Origin: Candidatus Magasanikbacteria bacterium UBA922
GTDB lineage: Bacteria; Patescibacteriota; Patescibacteriia; Magasanikbacterales; UBA922
Direction of reading: 5' to 3'
Assembly (NCBI GenBank): GCA_002293825.1
Contig: DBDW01000011.1
Coordinates: forward strand, 9,436-73,435
Length of the DNA stretch: 64,000 bases
Under the pieces are notes generated by a model. That model was not told the origin of the DNA. It did not search any database and saw nothing but the letters and a program-made list of their open reading frames with translations. Position 1 is the first letter of the stretch, and each line of letters opens with the position of its first letter. Positions 2,736 to 10,449 of the stretch are shown in pieces. Made by a program: the position numbers and the translations under genes.

Positions 2736-5036
2736 ATGCTTATAAGCAACGTGTCAAAAGATATGCGAATCAAAAGTGACGTATACGAATTTTTTGTAGA
2801 AGGAAAAAATCATCACCTATCCCACGTGTTGCTCCATATCGCATCCCCTGGAAAACCAGATGGAGAAAATCAGGGATATTTTTTTGTACTCGCCGAAATG
2901 GATAACCCCGAAGCTGCAATCCTTCACACCCTTGAAGACCTTATTCGAGATGGAGAAAATTTATACTATGGAGGATATGACGGTGAAACCATGCAGGCAC
3001 CCGATCCTGAAACACGACACTTTGAATCAGTCATTGAAAAACTCAATCGCAAAGCAAAAACATTACTATCAAATGAGCGAGCCTACAAAATTCACATGGC
3101 TGTCGGGGTGATACGAAACAATCGACTCTCATTTGCATATCGAGGAGAACTGTGCGCATTACTCGCATATATGAGTGCAGAAGGCCCTTCATATACCTCA
3201 ATCACAGACGAAGCATCGTATCCAGAGCACATGTTTTTTTCGTCAGTTATCGAAGGAAATTTTACTACAGACGAAGCGGTATACCTCTCTACCCCGCACA
3301 TCACCAAATATCTCTCTTCTGATCGTATCGCAAAAATGATTGTGGGAAAACCTGCAAAACAATCAATACAACAAATCCAAAAGACACTCGAAGGAATCTC
3401 ATCTGAATATTCATTCGGTGGTATTGTAATCACTGGTTCTGAAATACACACCGAGATACCCAAAGCCCCAAAACCAAACTACCGCACCAATATCGGATCA
3501 GAAGAATCAATGGATCGACTACTAGACACCACCCGCTCGACTGAAGACACTTTGTCACCAAAAGTCTTTTCTCATATTGCAAAAACATTTGCAGGAGGAT
3601 TCAAAAAAAACGAAGAATCAGAAGAAGATGTTCCTGTACTACATGCAACAAAAGAAACCAATCCAGGCAAATACCGCCGAAAACGACGCGCCGAACAAAT
3701 ACCTACATACGATACAGGGGGCTCATTATTAATTATACTCGGGAAAATAATCGTATGGACAACAAAAGCATTGTTCTACGTAATAAAAACACTAAGTATC
3801 GCACTTGGTAAATTCCTCGCAATCTTCTGGACACTTGCCACCAATTACAATGGGGGTAGAAAAATCCTACTTGAACAATACGCTGATGCACGACAGCGAA
3901 TGGTAGATAAATTCACCGCACTGGGAATCTTCGGAAAAATTCTTCTTCTCATTCTCATTATCGGAATTGGCATTCTCACTGGAAGTATTATATATACCAA
4001 AGAAAAAGAAAAAGTAATGGCTCGTGAAGAAGCATATGCATCTGAAATGGCTCTCCTTATCGATACAAAAAAAGAAATTGACGCATATGTGCTGTATGGC
4101 GATCATGCGAAAGCGCTTGAATCACTTCGTACAATAGACGCAAAACTTGCAACACTCACACATGACACACCAGAAAAACAAAAACGTGCAGATGATCTAA
4201 AAAGTGAATTACACACACTCCTCTTGAAAGTACAAAAAATCACCGCTATCATCCCTGAGAAAATAGTCGACATTCGAGAAGCGCACGAAAATGCACGCAC
4301 TGACGCACTCGTATTCATGGGTGATCGCTTGGTGGCAAGCGGCACAAACGATACAGGCCTATACTTCATCTCCACTCTTACCGGTCTCATCGAAAAGAAA
4401 AATGTAGAAACTGCACACCGTCTCGCATATGGTTACGTAGCAAAAGATGCCTCACAACTCGTATTCACCTCTGGAGATAATACAATCGTGGCATACTCCA
4501 CAGACACCGATAGTATTGCTTCAAAAACAATCACCTATCCCAATCAAAATGTCGTACTCTCGGATATTGCGCTCTACAATGGACGTCTCTATACACTCGA
4601 CCGAGCAAATGGAGCACTCTATCGCCACAATCCCACACAAATAGGTTTCGATAATGGTACCTCATGGGTAACCTCACAAACCGACCCGACACAATTAAAA
4701 AACGCAATCTCATTTGCACTCGATGGAGACCTCTACGCACTTACCGAAAACGGAAAAGTACTCAAATATTCAGCCGGGGTAGAGCAACTATTTACCATAC
4801 AAGGCCTTGACCCAGTCCTCGAATCCCCTACTCAAATCGAGACCAAAAGTGAATTTGCAAATATCTACATTCTCGAACCATCAAAAAAACGTATTATTGT
4901 GCTCGATAAAAATGGAAATTTCAAAAAACAATTCCAATCAGACACATGGATCAATCCTACCGGATTTGCAATTACAGACACCGAAAAAGAAGCATACGTA
5001 CTCGATGCTACGACCGTGTATAAATTTAAATTGTAG
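2736..5036 (+). CDS. hypothetical membrane protein with C-terminal beta-propeller-like repeats
   Basis: 766 aa. Two or three central TM helices (LLIILGKIIVWTTKALFYVIKTLSIALGKFLAIFW; ILLLILIIGIGILTGSIIY). The C-terminus has repeated YxLD / DGxLYxL blades. Confidence 0.5.
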   Translation: MLISNVSKDMRIKSDVYEFFVEGKNHHLSHVLLHIASPGKPDGENQGYFFVLAEMDNPEAAILHTLEDLIRDGENLYYGGYDGETMQAPDPETRHFESVIEKLNRKAKTLLSNERAYKIHMAVGVIRNNRLSFAYRGELCALLAYMSAEGPSYTSITDEASYPEHMFFSSVIEGNFTTDEAVYLSTPHITKYLSSDRIAKMIVGKPAKQSIQQIQKTLEGISSEYSFGGIVITGSEIHTEIPKAPKPNYRTNIGSEESMDRLLDTTRSTEDTLSPKVFSHIAKTFAGGFKKNEESEEDVPVLHATKETNPGKYRRKRRAEQIPTYDTGGSLLIILGKIIVWTTKALFYVIKTLSIALGKFLAIFWTLATNYNGGRKILLEQYADARQRMVDKFTALGIFGKILLLILIIGIGILTGSIIYTKEKEKVMAREEAYASEMALLIDTKKEIDAYVLYGDHAKALESLRTIDAKLATLTHDTPEKQKRADDLKSELHTLLLKVQKITAIIPEKIVDIREAHENARTDALVFMGDRLVASGTNDTGLYFISTLTGLIEKKNVETAHRLAYGYVAKDASQLVFTSGDNTIVAYSTDTDSIASKTITYPNQNVVLSDIALYNGRLYTLDRANGALYRHNPTQIGFDNGTSWVTSQTDPTQLKNAISFALDGDLYALTENGKVLKYSAGVEQLFTIQGLDPVLESPTQIETKSEFANIYILEPSKKRIIVLDKNGNFKKQFQSDTWINPTGFAITDTEKEAYVLDATTVYKFKL

Positions 5037-5110
5037 TTGAGAGTCAGAAACCAAAAGTATCGTTAGTTTTTTATTTTACCTATTGACTCCTGACTTTGAA
5101 CTTCCCACTA

Positions 5111-5149
5111 AAAAAAACAAAAACTCCTCGATTTTCACGAGGAGTTTTT
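5111..5149. terminator. bidirectional rho-independent terminator between the 2736..5036 gene and rplL
   Basis: Perfect hairpin CTCCTCG-attttca-CGAGGAG flanked by A-run and T-run on both strands. Confidence 0.6.
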
Positions 5150-5165
5150 ATGAGTTGAGGTAAAA

Positions 5166-5570
5166 TTACTTCAAGGTAACTTTTCCACCAGCTTCTTCAA
5201 TTTTCTTTTTCATTTCTTCAGCTTCAGCTTTAGCTACTTTTTCCTTGACTGCTTTTGGAGCTCCGTCAACAAGTGCTTTTGCTTCAGCAAGTCCGAGACC
5301 AGTGATTTCCTTCACCACCTTGATCACCGCGATTTTGTTTGCACCTGCATCAGTAAGTTCTACGGTAAAATCACTCTTCTCTTCAGCCGCTGCTGCTCCT
5401 GCTGCTGCTGGAGCTGCCATCATCATTGCTGGCGCTGCTGCTGATACACCGAATTTTTCTTCAAGAACCTTTACAAGTTCTGAGAGATCGAGCACAGACA
5501 TCTTTTCAATCTCACTTACGAGAGACTGAAATTTTGCTGGTACTTCTACTACTTTCTTTTCGTCTGACAT
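5166..5570 (-). CDS. rplL: 50S ribosomal protein L7/L12
   Basis: 134 aa. It has an Ala-rich hinge and the canonical C-terminal domain ([32 protein letters not shown]). Confidence 0.95.
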
Positions 5571-5591
5571 AATAGAATAATTTAATATATA

Positions 5592-6116
5592 TTAAGCTGT
5601 TTTAGTATCTTTGATTGCATTAAGTGCGGTCACAAGTCCGCGGATATTTCCAGCAAGTACATTCACAAATCCAGATACTGGAGCATTGAGTGTACCGACC
5701 AATTGTCCGAGAAGTTGTTGCTTGTTTGGCAATTGTGACAATGCAGTTACTTTAGCACCATCGATAAATGCACCTTCGAGAATACCACCGAAGAGTTTTA
5801 CCGCTTCGTGAGTTTTCGCAAAATTTGCAAGAATCTGTGCAGGAGCAACCTCATCATTCAATCCAAATACGACAGACACAGCACCATCGAAACTTTTCGG
5901 ATCAGCTTCGATTCCAGCATCTTTGAGCGCACGCGCGACCAAGGTTTTCTTGGCAGCAACATACGAGACACCTTCTTTTCGGCACAATCGTCGAAGTTCT
6001 TCTGATTCTTTCACTTTGAGGCCCTGGAAGTTGGCAAATACGACCGACTTCGATTGCTTCATGGAGTCAACCAGGATACTAAACGCCTGTTCTTTTTGTT
6101 CTCTGGTTTTTGGCAT
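5592..6116 (-). CDS. rplJ: 50S ribosomal protein L10
   Basis: 174 aa L10 fold immediately upstream of rplL. Classical rplJ-rplL arrangement. Confidence 0.93.
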   Translation of the reverse strand: MPKTREQKEQAFSILVDSMKQSKSVVFANFQGLKVKESEELRRLCRKEGVSYVAAKKTLVARALKDAGIEADPKSFDGAVSVVFGLNDEVAPAQILANFAKTHEAVKLFGGILEGAFIDGAKVTALSQLPNKQQLLGQLVGTLNAPVSGFVNVLAGNIRGLVTALNAIKDTKTA

Positions 6117-6250
6117 ACAGAGTAATAAAAAATGTGGTTTTTTGAACCACAGACTTTTTCGGTATAACTCGACCTTTACCCGGTCGAATGACCGGATACG
6201 TGTTACCTCGGTAGCATATTTAATCCTCCAAATCAGAGGAAGCTACTGTC
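6117..6250 (-). promoter_or_regulatory. putative L10 (rplJ) leader, structured 5' UTR
   Basis: About 135-nt untranslated leader between the predicted promoter and the rplJ ATG. It contains hairpins (ccggtcattcgaccgg; tgtggttcaaaaaaccaca). The position matches the autoregulatory L10 leader. Assigned by position and structure only. Confidence 0.3.
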
Positions 6251-6253
6251 TAT

Positions 6254-6282
6254 GGTGAGAAGATAATACCAAGAAAAAAGAC
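6254..6282 (-). promoter_or_regulatory. consensus sigma70-type promoter for rplJ-rplL (TTGACA-17-TATTAT)
   Basis: Minus strand reads TTGACAgacgtcttttttcttggTATTAT. The -35 is perfect and the spacer is 17 bp. Confidence 0.5.
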
Positions 6283-6349
6283 GTCTGTCAAGTAATAAAA
6301 CCAATTGCTTAAAATAAGCTCCGCATAGCAAAAAAACAACGTCCTACAC

Positions 6350-6378
6350 TTGACAAAAAGGCTTAAATATGCTATTAT
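6350..6378 (+). promoter_or_regulatory. consensus sigma70-type promoter (TTGACA-17-TATTAT) driving the high-GC glycosyltransferase
   Basis: Plus strand reads TTGACAaaaaggcttaaatatgcTATTAT. It is divergent from the rplJ promoter and 67 bp from it. Confidence 0.5.
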
Positions 6379-6493
6379 ATACGGTTCACCATAGCGTGGT
6401 GGGCCGTCCCAAAATGCCTCAAATGGGTACCAAAGGATAAAGTGTCTAAGAACTTCCAAAAGCCCTTAAGAGGGGTCAAAAGGAGCACGCATC

Positions 6494-7267
6494 ATGCGTG
6501 ACAAGCTCGCCGCTACGGCGGCCATCGTTCGTTCGTTCAACAACAAACACGTCGAGAAGCAGGTCCGGAACCTCCGCAACGCCGGCATCAGCCGGGTGAT
6601 CGTCGTGTCCGACGCCACCCGTGACAAGGGTGCGACCCGTGGGTTCCTCGCGGGCCTCCTCGAGAGCGGCAACGTGCAGCTCATCGAGATGCACGAAGGG
6701 TACTCGTGGTCGAACGCCCTCAACATCGCCTTGAAGGCGGTGCTGATGGCGAACATCAGGACGCGGAACCAGTTCCGCTTCATCCTGAACGTTTCTGTGG
6801 AAGCGCAGTTCACGAGCACCCACCTCGAGACCATGCTCGATGCGGCGACCAACGACCTGTCGATCGGGGTCGTCGGAACCTCCTTCCAAGGGAAGCAGGA
6901 CGGCAACGTCATCTCCCTGGGCAGATCCTACCGCCACCCCCGAAATACGGGGATGCTGATCCGGATCGAAGCGTTCGGTCCGATGATGGGCGGCTTCGAC
7001 GCGCGCTGTGACTCGATCGGTGGGATGGAGGACATCGACTACATTCTCGGCATGTTGTCGGTGAGTAACTTCACCTACAAGATGCTGGACCTCCAGGTCC
7101 CACTCGTGGTCGGTGCAAACTACCACCAGCCGACCAAGGAGAAGAACGAGCAGGCGGCGATGGACAAGATCATCGCCCACTGGCTCGGGCTCTTCCCCGT
7201 CGGCACCAACGAGCGCCAGCGGATCGAGGACGCCATCTCGAAGATGGCTCTCGACCACCGCGACTAG
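6494..7267 (+). CDS. family-2 (GT-A fold) glycosyltransferase encoded by a ~65% GC, GC3-rich gene; compositionally foreign
   Basis: Strong SD (AAGGAG, 9 nt before the ATG). GT2 motifs are present: AAIVRSFNN resembles SIVIPTYN; RVIVVSDATRDKG resembles VVDDGSTDGT; SWSNALNIALKAV resembles GKGAALNAG; GGFDAR...GMEDIDYILGM resembles GGFDE...EDxDLxxR. Two terminators follow. Codon usage is of high-GC actinobacterial style. Confidence 0.75.
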   Translation: MRDKLAATAAIVRSFNNKHVEKQVRNLRNAGISRVIVVSDATRDKGATRGFLAGLLESGNVQLIEMHEGYSWSNALNIALKAVLMANIRTRNQFRFILNVSVEAQFTSTHLETMLDAATNDLSIGVVGTSFQGKQDGNVISLGRSYRHPRNTGMLIRIEAFGPMMGGFDARCDSIGGMEDIDYILGMLSVSNFTYKMLDLQVPLVVGANYHQPTKEKNEQAAMDKIIAHWLGLFPVGTNERQRIEDAISKMALDHRD

Positions 7268-7283
7268 CCGAATAAAACGGCAC

Positions 7284-7321
7284 GCCCTGTACTCACACGA
7301 GTACAGGGCTTCTTCATTTTT
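7284..7321 (+). terminator. rho-independent terminator (GCCCTGTACTC-acac-GAGTACAGGGC + TTCTTCATTTTT)
   Basis: 11-bp perfect GC-rich stem and a T-tract, 17 nt after the stop codon. Confidence 0.7.
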
Positions 7322-7329
7322 AGAAAACA

Positions 7330-7356
7330 AAAAATCGCCTTCTGGCGATTTTTATT
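7330..7356. terminator. second, bidirectional terminator (AAAATCGCC-ttct-GGCGATTTT)
   Basis: Stem flanked by A/T runs on both strands. It also serves the convergent minus-strand lipoprotein gene. Confidence 0.6.
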
Positions 7357-7369
7357 GTAGCGCTACGGG
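7357..7369 (-). repeat. 13-bp direct repeat identical to the 3' end of tRNA-Glu (putative attachment-site remnant)
   Basis: gtagcgctacggg at 7357-7369 equals 8455-8467 (last 12 nt of tRNA-Glu plus 1 nt). A chance 13-mer match in this window is expected about 0.002 times. Confidence 0.5.
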
Positions 7370-7507
7370 AACAAGATCTTGAAACCCTGGTGTAAGTGCC
7401 AACACAAATATGGATATCACCTGGTGCACAAAAATTAATTCAGCCAGCTAAAGATGATGCAAAGTCGTTCCAATTCGCTTGAGTCTTCGAAAAATCGAAG
7501 ACCTACG

Positions 7508-8077
7508 TTACTGTGCATTCCATGCATTCAATACTTCCTCATCAATAGGTCGTCGCATCTTTCGAATAGAACCATTTTCAACCCATGTAAGGACTGGTGC
7601 AGTGCGTGGAGTAAAAGTGTTTTCAATGAGATACGTGTATACCGGAACAAGTGCTTTTCCATCAGCCATCTGATACAGACTTGTAAGAGCGCTGAAAGTT
7701 TTGTCTGTGCTCCAAGCATTATATGAGAGACCAATGAATGGCACTCCTTCTGAATTAGTAAATACTCGATACGATTCTGGAGTTGGAGCATACGCATACC
7801 CAAGTGACTTGTAATGCTCAAGGAGTATAGAAAAATCATTGTTCGCAGCAATCGACGTCTCTATAAGTTTAATTGTCGATGTTGCTGCGATAGTTGCACC
7901 ACCACGAATATCATCATAATTTGCATATGATGGAACCTCGTCTGCACGCCAAGTTTCAATTTCTAGATCACTATTCGATGTATTGAGGGATGCAGCCTCA
8001 GGTGTTTTCGGTTCTAAACCACAACCAGTTAGTAACACGAGTAAGACAAGTAGTGAAACAGTGGAGATGAAACGCAT
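7508..8077 (-). CDS. hypothetical lipoprotein
   Basis: Signal peptide with lipobox LLTGC (MRFISTVSLLVLLVLLTGCG). 189 aa. Confidence 0.55.
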   Translation of the reverse strand: MRFISTVSLLVLLVLLTGCGLEPKTPEAASLNTSNSDLEIETWRADEVPSYANYDDIRGGATIAATSTIKLIETSIAANNDFSILLEHYKSLGYAYAPTPESYRVFTNSEGVPFIGLSYNAWSTDKTFSALTSLYQMADGKALVPVYTYLIENTFTPRTAPVLTWVENGSIRKMRRPIDEEVLNAWNAQ

Positions 8078-8083
8078 AATAGT

Positions 8084-8452
8084 CTAGTTAGATATGGAAG
8101 TGATTTGATCAGGTATCCCTGAGTCAACAATGTTGGGATGGGGACGTGTTGTCTCAGCGTCAACCATTCCAACGAACGCACGAACGAAACCTGAAAGTTC
8201 GACCAAGATCTTCATTCGTTCCTCATGCAATAAATTCGGATAAGCTTTCGTGAGTTTCTCTTGAATCTCTAGATTGTCAAAATCAAGATGCGGCATACTG
8301 AGTTGAGTGTAATACTCGAAAACCATGCAGTCAAGGGTCCACGGGGAATCGGACAACTCATAGTTCAATCTAGCGGAGGTCAATTTGAAAAAGTCCGAGC
8401 GAAAACGAAAACATCGCTCGGTTGAGCGATGTTTTCGAGGGAATTTCCCCAT
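8084..8452 (-). CDS. hypothetical protein (true start probably internal, near MVFEYYTQ)
   Basis: ORF present. However its first ~28 codons cover a perfect 13-bp terminator hairpin (8402-8431) that follows tRNA-Glu. The N-terminus is therefore likely over-called. Confidence 0.35.
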   Translation of the reverse strand: MGKFPRKHRSTERCFRFRSDFFKLTSARLNYELSDSPWTLDCMVFEYYTQLSMPHLDFDNLEIQEKLTKAYPNLLHEERMKILVELSGFVRAFVGMVDAETTRPHPNIVDSGIPDQITSISN

Positions 8453-8455
8453 GAG

Positions 8456-8527
8456 TAGCGCTACGGGGAATCGAACCCCGGTTACCAGGATGAAAACCTG
8501 ATGTCCTAACCACTAGACGATAGCGCC
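8456..8527 (-). tRNA. tRNA-Glu (anticodon UUC)
   Basis: Cloverleaf read manually: GGCGCTA acceptor stem, anticodon loop TTTTCAT, T-loop GGTTCGATTCC. The CCA end is not encoded. 72 nt. Confidence 0.88.
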
Positions 8528-8528
8528 A

Positions 8529-8822
8529 TTAAAAAATTCTATTGTATAACTCTTCTTTCTTTTTACTATTTTTCTTCAACTCAATTTCTCGTTTCCGAGC
8601 TTGAGTCTTTGAAAGATACGCCTCATAATAAACCAATCTAAACGGAACTTTGTGCTTGATTGATTTTGTCTTCCCTTGATTATGCTCTACCAATCTTCTT
8701 CTCAAATCTTCAGTAGAACCGATATACACAGTCCGATCTTGAAGACTTTCGATAACATATGTATAAAACATAGCTCCCTCTATAGTAACAGGTACACAGG
8801 ATGTCAGCCAGAGGCTGATCAC
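8529..8822 (-). CDS. GIY-YIG nuclease family protein (UPF0213-like small endonuclease)
   Basis: ...MFYTYVIESLQDRTVYIGSTEDLRRRLVEHNQG...FRLVYYEAY...REIELKK are classical GIY-YIG motifs. The probable start is the internal Met at 8771. Confidence 0.8.
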   Translation of the reverse strand: MISLWLTSCVPVTIEGAMFYTYVIESLQDRTVYIGSTEDLRRRLVEHNQGKTKSIKHKVPFRLVYYEAYLSKTQARKREIELKKNSKKKEELYNRIF

Positions 8823-8833
8823 CCTTCGGGTGA

Positions 8834-8870
8834 AAAACCTGATGTCCTAACCACTAGACGATAGCACCAT
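8834..8870 (-). repeat. 37-bp partial duplicate of the 5' part of tRNA-Glu (1 mismatch), upstream of the GIY-YIG gene
   Basis: 8834-8870 matches 8493-8529 (aaaacctgatgtcctaaccactagacgatagc[g/a]ccat). It covers the 5' acceptor strand, D-arm and anticodon-stem 5' side. Confidence 0.7.
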
Positions 8871-8977
8871 AACTTGGTAGCAAAAAGTATAGTAAAAAAG
8901 ATAAATCTTGTCAACATACACCTCATAAAAAGCAAAACGGGTACGGTGCAGATGCAACACATACCCGAACGAAGTCA

Positions 8978-9247
8978 TCAAATACCCTCTATATCGTCCC
9001 CCATTTCTCTGGGAGGCAGATAGGGTCCCCGATCGAAGGCAGTCCTCAGCTCACGACGCCCGACATACAGGCCGATCCCACTCAGAAGAAGAATCGCGAC
9101 ACACACCACCTTCGCATACGCACTGTCGACAACGATAATGCCGATCAGAGCAAAGATGATGAAGAGAACAAAAACCCAAGACAACTTGTAATATTTCACT
9201 GACGAAACCCTCCAGTCCTCGATAGTGAGGACAGACGAATATAGCAC
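8978..9247 (-). CDS. small 2-TM membrane protein (hypothetical), locally elevated GC (~50%)
   Basis: 89 aa with two hydrophobic helices. GC content is noticeably higher than in flanking DNA. Confidence 0.35.
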   Translation of the reverse strand: MLYSSVLTIEDWRVSSVKYYKLSWVFVLFIIFALIGIIVVDSAYAKVVCVAILLLSGIGLYVGRRELRTAFDRGPYLPPREMGDDIEGI

Positions 9248-9393
9248 ACAAATACTAGTATGTCAACATAGACACACAATATTGATTTAACCTTAGTCAC
9301 CTGCTACACTACGCACGCACTATATAAGGGAAAACAATAAACACACCTTCTGCAAACTCAGTATCACACTCCTCTCATACTAAAACGATATCT

Positions 9394-10449
9394 ATGAAAA
9401 TCCTCGGCATCGAATCATCCTGCGACGATACGTCTGTCGCATTGATAGAAATAAATGAAAAACATATTACAATCCTTGCAGAAAAAACCGCAAGCCAGAT
9501 TGAGGTACATGCAAAATACGGTGGAGTAATTCCAGAAATCGCCGGTCGAAAACACGCCGAACACATCATACCAGTCATCGAAGCAGTCATGGAAACACAC
9601 ACTCGACCAGATGCAATTGCAGTAACCTATGGACCAGGTCTTATTGCTGGTTTACTTGTGGGAGTAGAAGCAGCAAAAACACTGTCATATATCTGGAACG
9701 TACCCATAATCCCCGTCAATCATATTGAAGGACATTTCTATTCACCTGAAATTAATACAAAAACTCAAGAAAAAAATAGCATTCAATATCCTGCACTCGC
9801 ACTTATTGTAAGCGGTGGACATACTGAACTTGCATATTCACCCGTACCAGGAACATATGAAAAAGTCGGAGGGACACGAGATGATGCGGTCGGAGAATGT
9901 TTTGACAAAGTTGCAAAACTACTCGGAATACCCTATCCTGGTGGACCAAAAATCTCAAAACTAGCTGAACATGGTGATGGAAACAAAATCAATTTTCCTA
10001 GACCTATGGAACAATCTCCTGATTTCGACATGAGTTTTTCTGGTCTCAAAACCGCAGTACTCTATTGGCTACATGATCACCCGATTACAGTTGAAAATCC
10101 GAAATTTGAAAATGAAGAAGGCTCATTTACCATCGAAGATGTGTGTGCAAGTGTCCAATCAGCAATTACCGATGTGCTCATTTCAAAAACAACAGCAGCA
10201 ATCAAAAAATATTCCCCCCGCACACTTATTCTCGCCGGAGGAGTATCTGCAAACAAAAAACTCAGAGAAGAGCTCGAAGTGCTTACTACTAAACTTGGAA
10301 TTAATTTCAGACTTCCCGAACTTGCGTACACGACTGACAATGCTGCGATGATTGCAACTGCAGGATTTCATCGCTTCAATGAAAAGAAAACAGTATTATG
10401 GAAAAATGTAATCGCTGACCCTCAATCTTCATGGTACAAAGAAAACTAG
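9394..10449 (+). CDS. tsaD: tRNA N6-adenosine threonylcarbamoyltransferase TsaD (Kae1/Gcp)
   Basis: MKILGIESSCDDTSVALIE N-terminus. HxEGH metal site (VNHIEGHFYSP). 351 aa. Confidence 0.9.
   Translation: MKILGIESSCDDTSVALIEINEKHITILAEKTASQIEVHAKYGGVIPEIAGRKHAEHIIPVIEAVMETHTRPDAIAVTYGPGLIAGLLVGVEAAKTLSYIWNVPIIPVNHIEGHFYSPEINTKTQEKNSIQYPALALIVSGGHTELAYSPVPGTYEKVGGTRDDAVGECFDKVAKLLGIPYPGGPKISKLAEHGDGNKINFPRPMEQSPDFDMSFSGLKTAVLYWLHDHPITVENPKFENEEGSFTIEDVCASVQSAITDVLISKTTAAIKKYSPRTLILAGGVSANKKLREELEVLTTKLGINFRLPELAYTTDNAAMIATAGFHRFNEKKTVLWKNVIADPQSSWYKEN

Follow-up and report, generated by a model that had tools for sequence, protein, structure and literature searches.

A gene whose base composition departs from that of its genome is routinely taken as a sign of recent horizontal transfer. 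Genomic islets and phage "morons" have this character: they are autonomous transcription units of foreign G+C content (GC) that lie beside tRNA genes and are variably present. Here, we describe a cassette that is like them in these respects. It occupies ~1 kb (~6300-7322) of a 64,000-nucleotide stretch of DNA, hereafter the window, from contig DBDW01000011.1 of Candidatus Magasanikbacteria bacterium UBA922 (GenBank assembly GCA_002293825.1), lies between the ribosomal protein gene rplJ and a tRNA-Glu, and carries a single gene for a predicted glycosyltransferase. Two other groups of described systems also come close. The first is the CAZy GT2/PF00535 glycosyltransferases (SpsA, PcManGT 6yv7, Leptospira 6p61, and the catalytic domain of BcsA), with which the product shares a Rossmann-like GT-A fold and weak sequence similarity. 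The second comprises guanidine-II (mini-ykkC) riboswitches and ROSE/fourU thermometers, which, like the leader of this gene, place two short, tandem, G+C-rich hairpins in the 5' untranslated region (UTR), with covarying stems and conserved loops, the second hairpin adjoining or occluding the Shine-Dalgarno sequence.

Our explanation, which taken whole we consider to stand at even chances, is that the cassette is a genuine and anciently resident part of the chromosome, that the GC at third codon positions (GC3) and the folding of its message are held at anomalous values by a sustained force, and that its leader gates translation. The host is a Patescibacterium related to Candidatus Magasanikbacteria, to which its RplJ comes closest. 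The cassette probably entered a hot spot between rplJ and tRNA-Glu by horizontal transfer from a GC-rich lineage of Patescibacteria, and it would have done so before the lineages of the window and of its relatives L007 and L006 split. A strong, host-type promoter would produce an mRNA that opens with a 5'-terminal hairpin followed by two stem/internal-loop/stem modules, and the basal stem of the second module, UUCC:GGAG, would gate translation in response to an effector, for which a metabolite, a protein, and temperature are all conceivable. The single-gene unit would end at an intrinsic terminator. The product would be a GT-A enzyme in which S-x-E replaces DXD and GGMED is invariant, linked elsewhere to a GalE-like epimerase and to SemiSWEET. 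Finally, synonymous sites would turn over yet stay G or C by selection for a folded mRNA, one that would be stable while translationally silent. Throughout, L-numbers denote loci or contigs that carry homologues or are syntenic relatives; L051 and L052 are Logan assemblies, and L006 and L007 are metagenome-assembled genomes (MAGs) in GTDB that come from other studies.

The gene is the sole GC outlier in the 64 kb. Specifically, its open reading frame (ORF) has a GC of 61.6% (57, 38, and 89% at the first, second, and third codon positions), while the whole window has 41.2% and GC3 outside the ORF is 32%. Among 774-bp windows (mean GC 0.412, sd 0.032), the ORF stands ~6 sd out, and all other regions are at or below 0.47; its GC3 z-score is 12 relative to the 47 other ORFs of the window (GC3 0.32 +/- 0.05). 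The excess is confined to the coding sequence (CDS), as the promoter region has 34% GC and the UTRs 47-49%. An initial annotation of this DNA had given the contrast as 65% against 38%; the jump is real, but its size is 62% against 41%, or ~20 points, and the possibility, raised there, that the GC and codon profile would prove unremarkable once computed does not hold. The same annotation had likened the third positions, nearly all G or C, to those of actinobacterial genes; the 89% GC3 bears out the first half of that statement, but the named homologues are Patescibacteria. Its description of a self-contained single-gene unit of foreign composition, with its own promoter, leader, and terminator, is upheld by the following features:

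6300-6349, plus strand: upstream spacer between divergent promoters, with the hairpin-like element gcttaaaataagc and catagc
6350-6378, plus strand: sigma-70-type promoter, TTGACA-17-TATTAT with a TG extended -10, score 11/12
6384-6404, plus strand: P0, a 5'-terminal stem-loop at the predicted transcript start, beginning GUUC, 9 bp in the minimum free energy (MFE) structure
6406-6438, plus strand: leader hairpin A, with basal stem GUCC:GGAU, an A-rich 5x5 internal loop, and apical UGCCU-CAAAU-GGGUA
6454-6485, plus strand: leader hairpin B, with apical GCCCU-UAAGA-GGGGU and a basal UUCC:GGAG that pairs the Shine-Dalgarno sequence (AGGAG, 6481-6485)
6486-6500, plus strand: AUG hairpin CACGCA-UCA-UGCGUG, enclosing the AUG at 6494-6496
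6494-7267, plus strand: gene for the GT-A-fold protein, 774 bp, 257 aa, GC3 89%
7284-7322, plus strand: intrinsic terminator for the glycosyltransferase gene, consisting of an 11-bp stem (7284-7309) and a T-run 3' of it

The age of the acquisition is established by comparison with L006 and L007, both of which are syntenic with the window on both sides of the cassette and carry it at the identical rplJ/tRNA-Glu place. Between the window and L007, the flanking proteins, three in this comparison, are 83% identical, as is the glycosyltransferase (83%); between the window and L006, the five flanking proteins are 74.5% identical and the glycosyltransferase 73%. The host tree from the five flanking proteins reads ((window,L007),(L006,L054)),L053. 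The glycosyltransferase tree reads ((window,L007),L006), sister to L001/L003, whose hosts have ~62% GC, and because of that sister clade a horizontal origin is plausible. At four-fold degenerate sites taken at conserved residues, the window and L006 compare as follows, where GC4 is the GC of those sites:

Seven flanking genes pooled, 1126 sites: identity 0.41, expected at saturation 0.28, excess 0.18; GC4 0.34 (window) and 0.33 (L006)
Glycosyltransferase gene, 89 sites: identity 0.49, expected at saturation 0.38, excess 0.18; GC4 0.87 (window) and 0.87 (L006)

Divergence of the gene at these sites equals that of its flanks, and the gene occupies the same site in L006 and L007; thus, the acquisition is old. 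Four-fold sites are near saturation, yet GC is retained. Specifically, 31 of the 45 four-fold differences between the two glycosyltransferase genes are exchanges of G and C. Had the gene drifted under the mutational regime of the host for as long as its flanks indicate, each lineage would keep a memory of ~0.42, and neutral amelioration would have brought GC4 to 0.57 from a 90% G+C ancestor and to 0.62 even from a 100% one. The observed value is 0.87, and so something maintains the GC-richness.

The family as a whole tells a similar story. The gene is richer in GC than its flanks, by 12-21 points, in the window, L006, L007, L009, L011, L012, L020, L026-L030, L035, and L048; where the host itself has 61-63% GC, gene and flanks hardly differ, and the gene is never clearly below its host. 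It is the highest-GC3 gene of its neighbourhood in 14 of 27 independent loci of at least 8 kb, with z >= 4 in 10 of the 27. In addition, the block GroEL-prfA-[glycosyltransferase]-epimerase-Sua5-KsgA is kept in L001/L003 (62% GC), L017 (55%), and L020 (46%). In L020, the neighbours have GC3 values of 0.39-0.58 and the glycosyltransferase gene 0.78, a second, independent case of retention. Other isolated small genes with a GC3 of 0.76-0.86 occur in L028 (10997-11617, 16313-16741, and 20120-20758) and L042 (4598-5215), against a genome mean GC3 of ~0.54-0.57, and single-gene GC-rich islets may be a wider feature of some Patescibacteria genomes.

What could hold the third positions at such values? 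The cause that we favour, and that predicted folding energies suggest, is selection for a message that is in general G+C-rich and tightly folded. When synonymous codons are shuffled in a manner that keeps the protein, the codon usage, and GC3, the z-score of the MFE averages -3.29 for 15 members of the glycosyltransferase family and -0.84 for 20 flanking control genes from AT-rich and GC-rich hosts (Mann-Whitney p = 1.3e-5). Individual values reach -4.4 in the window, -4.7 in L006, -5.4 in L011, and -5.3 in L028, and the excess is present even in GC-rich hosts. For the whole transcript (6384-7325), z is -7.1 relative to dinucleotide shuffles.

Several observations weigh against this explanation. 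RNAalifold on 13 CDS finds no conserved structure (-28 kcal/mol, covariation -1.5), so that any selection for structure would be generic, and the argument for it is built on predicted energies only. Members in the AT-rich hosts L004, L013, L016, L041, and L047 are nearly host-like, with a GC3 of 0.40-0.54; high GC is therefore not obligatory. Within the conserved synteny described above, the cassette is inverted in L001/L003 relative to L017/L020, and the two subclades are ~40% identical; a cassette flipped at a fixed site in different subclades means that inversion or replacement occurs. The rplJ/tRNA-Glu site is itself a hot spot, since L054 carries a different island there, of 57-68% GC. 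Moreover, L054 is the sister of L006 and lacks the gene in the sequence available, which requires either a loss or two gains. The simplest history would be a single insertion that preceded the split of the window and L006, with the gene then lost or replaced in L054; alternatively, the gene may have been gained on two independent occasions. Lastly, repeated import from GC-rich donors could mimic the retention of GC.

This last idea is the main rival to selection on the mRNA. It holds that the gene is repeatedly imported, or its allele replaced, from a GC-rich reservoir among Patescibacteria, possibly with GC-biased gene conversion, that any copy in an AT-rich host would thus be of fairly young age, and that composition as such is under no selection. 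We regard it as rather doubtful, and it accommodates much of the evidence: the unit is self-contained, its promoter, leader, and terminator travel together, it occurs in many different genomic contexts and flips its orientation in conserved synteny, host-like and GC-rich copies form a continuum, and in L054 the hot spot is taken by another GC-rich island. Even the exchanges of G and C are expected from divergence inside GC-rich donors. Nonetheless, IMG/VR, the INPHARED phages, and the PLSDB plasmids contain no relatives and thus offer no evidence for a phage or plasmid vector; no integrase or transposase ORF lies in or beside 6300-7330, and the cassette is not bordered by direct repeats. For the window, L007, and L006, the distances between the genes agree with those between the hosts. 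The enrichment in GC ends exactly at the ends of the CDS, and the excess of mRNA folding, seen even in GC-rich hosts, is not something that import predicts.

A recent acquisition from a high-GC donor, not yet ameliorated, is what the initial annotation had proposed, and we now judge it improbable. The jump in GC is sharp and confined to one gene, the gene sits beside a tRNA in a variable region, and its nearest clade resides in hosts of ~62% GC. As in a genomic island, deviant composition goes together with absence from relatives, because L053 and L054/55, which are similarly distant, lack the gene at the syntenic locus. What fails is the recency. L007 and L006 carry orthologous copies at the same site and share the leader, protein identity tracks the host (83/73% for the glycosyltransferase and 83/74.5% for the flanks), synonymous divergence from L006 equals that of the flanking genes, with a four-fold memory of 0.18 in both, and no sequence from a GC-rich host comes closer than 69% identity.

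An overlapping antisense gene could constrain synonymous sites, as a long antisense ORF (6476-7330, minus strand, 284 aa, in the window) runs over the full length of the gene not only in the window but also in L006, L007, and many GC-rich members. However, such a frame stays open whenever TTA, CTA, and TCA are avoided, which is automatic when GC3 is high, and the ORF is therefore best understood as a by-product. Many members interrupt the frame, among them the GC-rich L011 (95 codons), L026, and L015, and identity in the antisense frame is lower than in the sense frame. Since the frame is not conserved across the family, we reject this candidate as very improbable.

That the locus is an assembly chimera, contaminant read-through, or an engineered insert, as had also been suggested, has next to no chance of being right. 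Nothing but the contrast in composition and a promoter and terminator of textbook form speaks for it, and independent assemblies reproduce both junctions: those from two Logan runs (L051 and L052) match the window at 99.3% identity over the junction on the rplJ side, and L051, the longer of the two, also passes the cassette end into tRNA-Glu. L006 and L007 have the same arrangement in other samples, and the host rplJ promoter bears the same consensus hexamers. As a separate matter, the CDS of the window and of L051 (1050-1823) differ at 5 nt in 4 codons, all of them non-synonymous (S33G; C-terminal ALDHRD to GLDRHD); the count of 0 synonymous differences is compatible with constrained synonymous sites, in numbers too small to interpret.

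The leader, which has no match in Rfam, is a candidate translational riboregulator. The promoter reported initially is present at 6350-6378, together with an extended -10 TG, and so is an AAGGAG Shine-Dalgarno sequence at 6480-6485, 8 nt 5' of the ATG. The notion that the unit has been tuned for high expression does not follow. The promoter is of host type, because the divergent rplJ promoter 59 bp away has identical hexamers, spacer, and TG; what was called a perfect promoter is simply the look of this organism's own strong promoters. In addition, predicted, conserved structure encloses both the Shine-Dalgarno sequence and the AUG, which suggests gated rather than maximal translation. Since the basal stem of hairpin B pairs the Shine-Dalgarno GGAG, translation is probably gated at that stem.

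This architecture recurs across the family. A TTGAC(A/T)-17-TAnnnT promoter lies ~90-140 nt 5' of the gene in 32 unique loci, with the 17-nt spacer in 31 of the 32, and in ~22 of the 32 a hairpin begins no more than 2 nt from the predicted start, mostly with GUUC or GUUG. Hairpins A and B are found at -75..-83 and -30..-35 from the start codon in ~30 loci. Their apical parts follow the pattern CCU-[~5 nt, YNRAU-like]-GGG, and the stems vary among loci by compensatory changes; the apical stem of hairpin A, for example, covaries across loci. In a leader alignment fitted to the model, 86.6% of cells are paired, compared to 32-56% in slid controls, 8 of the 11 pairs have changed in both partners, and 0 of 500 shuffles attain the observed score. 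Fixed position plus compensatory changes is the pattern of a generic cis-regulatory structured RNA. The basal stem of hairpin B appears in the MFE structures of most loci, with UUUCC or CUUCC pairing the Shine-Dalgarno GGAG, and hairpin A is a copy of the hairpin B module, complete with a pseudo-Shine-Dalgarno GGA. The AUG hairpin, identical in L007 and weaker in L006, is clade-specific. Upstream, L007 and two loci from GC-rich hosts, L001 and L003, have a spacer like that at 6300-6349, and L006 has a shortened one, from which we infer that the spacer forms the left edge of the transferred unit. Downstream, analogous hairpins lie 3' of the gene in L001, L003, L004, and L006. An AUG within hairpin A was considered as an upstream start; it is in frame in L001/L003 and out of frame or absent elsewhere, and the motif is therefore non-coding.

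A covariance model of the leader finds exactly one copy in the 64-kb window and one per locus, ahead of the gene. Extra copies are among the matches listed: one precedes a SemiSWEET gene (L033, 587-681) and others precede a gene for a 400-aa protein (L004, 9669-9764, minus strand; L058, 1533-1625). The 400-aa protein has no Pfam match and 6 homologues in 5.8 billion proteins, and its predicted model, from a 6-sequence alignment, is unusable (predicted local distance difference test (pLDDT) 35). A distant homologue (L057, 43% identity) lies among glycolytic genes, between GAPDH and PGK/enolase, and L058 looks like the L004 locus minus the glycosyltransferase cassette. Rfam 15 leaves the leader unmatched in a scan of 5000-9500 and in a permissive scan of 6340-6520, where the sole hit, on the minus strand, has 9.7 bits against a gathering score of 32. 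Literature searches on SemiSWEET and riboswitches, on riboswitches and glycosyltransferases in Patescibacteria, and on composition and amelioration returned nothing on the family, the leader, or GC retention in Patescibacteria. Only tentatively, then, do we propose the full novelty of the system: a new leader that gates a GT-A enzyme, SemiSWEET, and the 400-aa gene, possibly a sugar-related riboswitch, combined with a CDS that selection keeps GC3-high and folded.

The protein is probably a nucleotide-sugar-dependent glycosyltransferase, an activity suggested by genomic context. An AlphaFold2 model from the family alignment reaches a pLDDT of 96.1 and has the single Rossmann-like fold of GT-A enzymes. 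The top Foldseek matches in the PDB are all GT2-type GT-A structures (6yv7, 6p61, BcsA, K4CP, and SpsA), with E-values of 2e-10 to 1e-8, TM scores of 0.6-0.67, and 10-18% identity. Sequence comparison gives less: the match to PF00535 misses the Pfam gathering threshold (16.6 bits against a cut-off of 23.3; E = 0.0078), although weak matches to it recur in 31 of 86 family members at E <= 0.01 (best 9.7e-6). NCBIfam, PADLOC, and PHROGs yield no match, and PDB sequence searches, with the single protein and with the family profile, no meaningful one. At the DXD site, after strand 96-100 and thus after beta-strand 4, the sequence reads S101-V102-E103, a position placed by model topology rather than by residue-level superposition; S101 is invariant across the family and E103 at least 90% conserved. 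Within GGMED (176-180), G177, E179, and D180 are the same in all members, and G176 and M178 in nearly all, and the motif falls in the expected catalytic-base region, as assigned by region rather than by superposition. Other invariant or near-invariant residues lie in SYRHPRNTGM and YHQPxKE. The earlier statement that all GT2/GT-A signature motifs are present was therefore too strong: the GT-A fold stands, but the sub-threshold Pfam score and the S101-V-E103 at DXD do not fit it. On the model, the product is a divergent, soluble GT-A-fold protein and no textbook GT2 enzyme.

The family appears small and restricted to Patescibacteria. There are 86 homologues, nearly all unannotated, in 5.8 billion proteins, the few with names being Patescibacteria (Liptonbacteria, Moraniibacteriota), and a profile search of 1.84 billion cluster representatives gives 210 matches at E <= 1e-3. 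Contigs bearing the gene go by labels such as Paceibacteria, Doudnabacteria, Uhrbacteria, and Saccharibacteria; the exceptions carry the titles "uncultured Gammaproteobacteria/Bdellovibrionales bacterium", which we take as placeholders. Genomic context suggests a link to sugar or nucleotide-sugar metabolism. A GalE-like NAD-dependent epimerase adjoins the gene in L001, L003, L011, L012, L017, and L021 and lies within ~1.5 kb in L020 and L042, with farther epimerase-like matches in several more loci, and a SemiSWEET gene (PF03083, 35.6 bits) adjoins it in 4 distinct loci (L033, L010, L019/L046, and L013).

The flanks of the cassette belong to the host locus and to other insertions:

5166-5570, minus strand: rplL, left of the cassette
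5592-6116, minus strand: rplJ, left of the cassette
6119-6273, minus strand: L10-leader-like element, Rfam 37 bits, under the gathering score of 44
6291-6263, minus strand: rplJ promoter, TTGACA-17-TATTAT(TG), divergent
7330-7353, minus strand: tRNA-Glu terminator, possibly bidirectional, scoring on the minus strand and adjoining the tRNA-Glu 3' end in L051 and L006
7357-7368, minus strand: remnant left by the tRNA-Glu 3' end, 12 nt long, which bounds the host locus on the right and lies outside the cassette
7369-8455: strain-specific insertion of 1.1 kb with two ORFs, between the tRNA-Glu remnant and the intact tRNA-Glu
7508-8077, minus strand: putative lipoprotein, 189 aa, inside the 1.1-kb insertion
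8084-8452, minus strand: 122-aa ORF, inside the 1.1-kb insertion
8455-8527, minus strand: intact tRNA-Glu, right of the 1.1-kb insertion
8530-8833: second strain-specific insertion, holding a GIY-YIG ORF
8529-8822, minus strand: GIY-YIG ORF (PF01541, 61 bits)

Two earlier statements are affected by this arrangement. The two rho-independent terminators described in tandem reduce to one for the cassette: the hairpin at 7284-7309, with its T-run, is an intrinsic terminator, and the hairpin at 7330-7353 abuts the tRNA-Glu 3' end in L051 and L006 and is therefore the tRNA's terminator, or a bidirectional one. The gene was also said to sit next to the ribosomal rplJL promoter and a tRNA-associated integration scar. 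The divergent rplJ promoter is indeed directly to the left and the scar, which is real, to the right, but the scar is a property of the 7369-8455 and 8530-8833 insertions and not of the glycosyltransferase cassette. The 1.1-kb segment is absent from the 99.3%-identical L051 and from L006, and it is thus a strain-specific insertion at the tRNA 3' end. The GIY-YIG ORF, flanked by a 37-nt direct repeat of the tRNA-Glu 5' half (8493-8529 and 8834-8870, 97% identical), is absent from L051, whose tRNA directly meets the downstream sequence; the segment looks like a mobile insertion of the homing-endonuclease type. The corresponding region of L053 also contains a GIY-YIG gene, 68% identical. The island of L054 (1-4800; GCA_964435035.1, the same as L055) lies upstream of rplJ, spans at least 4.8 kb of 57-68% GC, and encodes a 1040-aa DEAD/ResIII helicase and a 283-aa protein. 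Farther to the left, the window encodes a 766-aa protein (2736-5036, plus strand) with weak matches to the beta-propeller-like repeats of DUF6923/DUF6242. It is fast-evolving, with 78, 64, 63, and 50% identity to its orthologues in L007, L054, L006, and L053, compared to 84-99% for RplJ.

If our explanation is correct, a glycosyltransferase gene that never ameliorates, whatever the composition of its host, would be a counter-example to the use of GC deviation as a clock of transfer. Here GC would reflect a force that persists, be it selection on the mRNA, biased conversion, or continual re-import, rather than age, and dating of transfers by composition would be misled by genes like this one. 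To our knowledge, little has been learned of gene regulation in Patescibacteria, and the locus would supply new objects of study there: a structured leader absent from Rfam and tied to a GT-A enzyme, SemiSWEET, and a 400-aa protein. A DXD-less GT-A family could likewise inform on sugar handling and cell-surface chemistry in these ultra-small, mostly uncultured bacteria.

Set against the systems with which we began, each part of the cassette departs in its own way. CAZy GT2 enzymes have their catalytic base in a region to which E179-D180 of GGMED in the window protein may correspond; the window protein differs from them in its sub-threshold Pfam score, in its lack of an NCBIfam or PDB sequence match, in S101-V-E103 at DXD, and in its own motifs SYRHPRNTGM and YHQPxKE, and it is small, soluble, and found only in Patescibacteria. 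From genomic islets and morons, the cassette is set apart by having no prophage, integrase, or repeats, and by having co-diverged with its host through synonymous saturation without ameliorating. The guanidine-II riboswitch (RF01068) carries ACGR loops, whereas the leader has 5-nt YNRAU/UAAGA loops (CAAAU and UAAGA) closed by CCU...GGG; each leader hairpin stands on an internal loop and a basal stem, and the Rfam model does not match it. Finally, the genes with which the leader is associated, encoding a GT-A enzyme, SemiSWEET, and the 400-aa protein, are unlike those of any described class.

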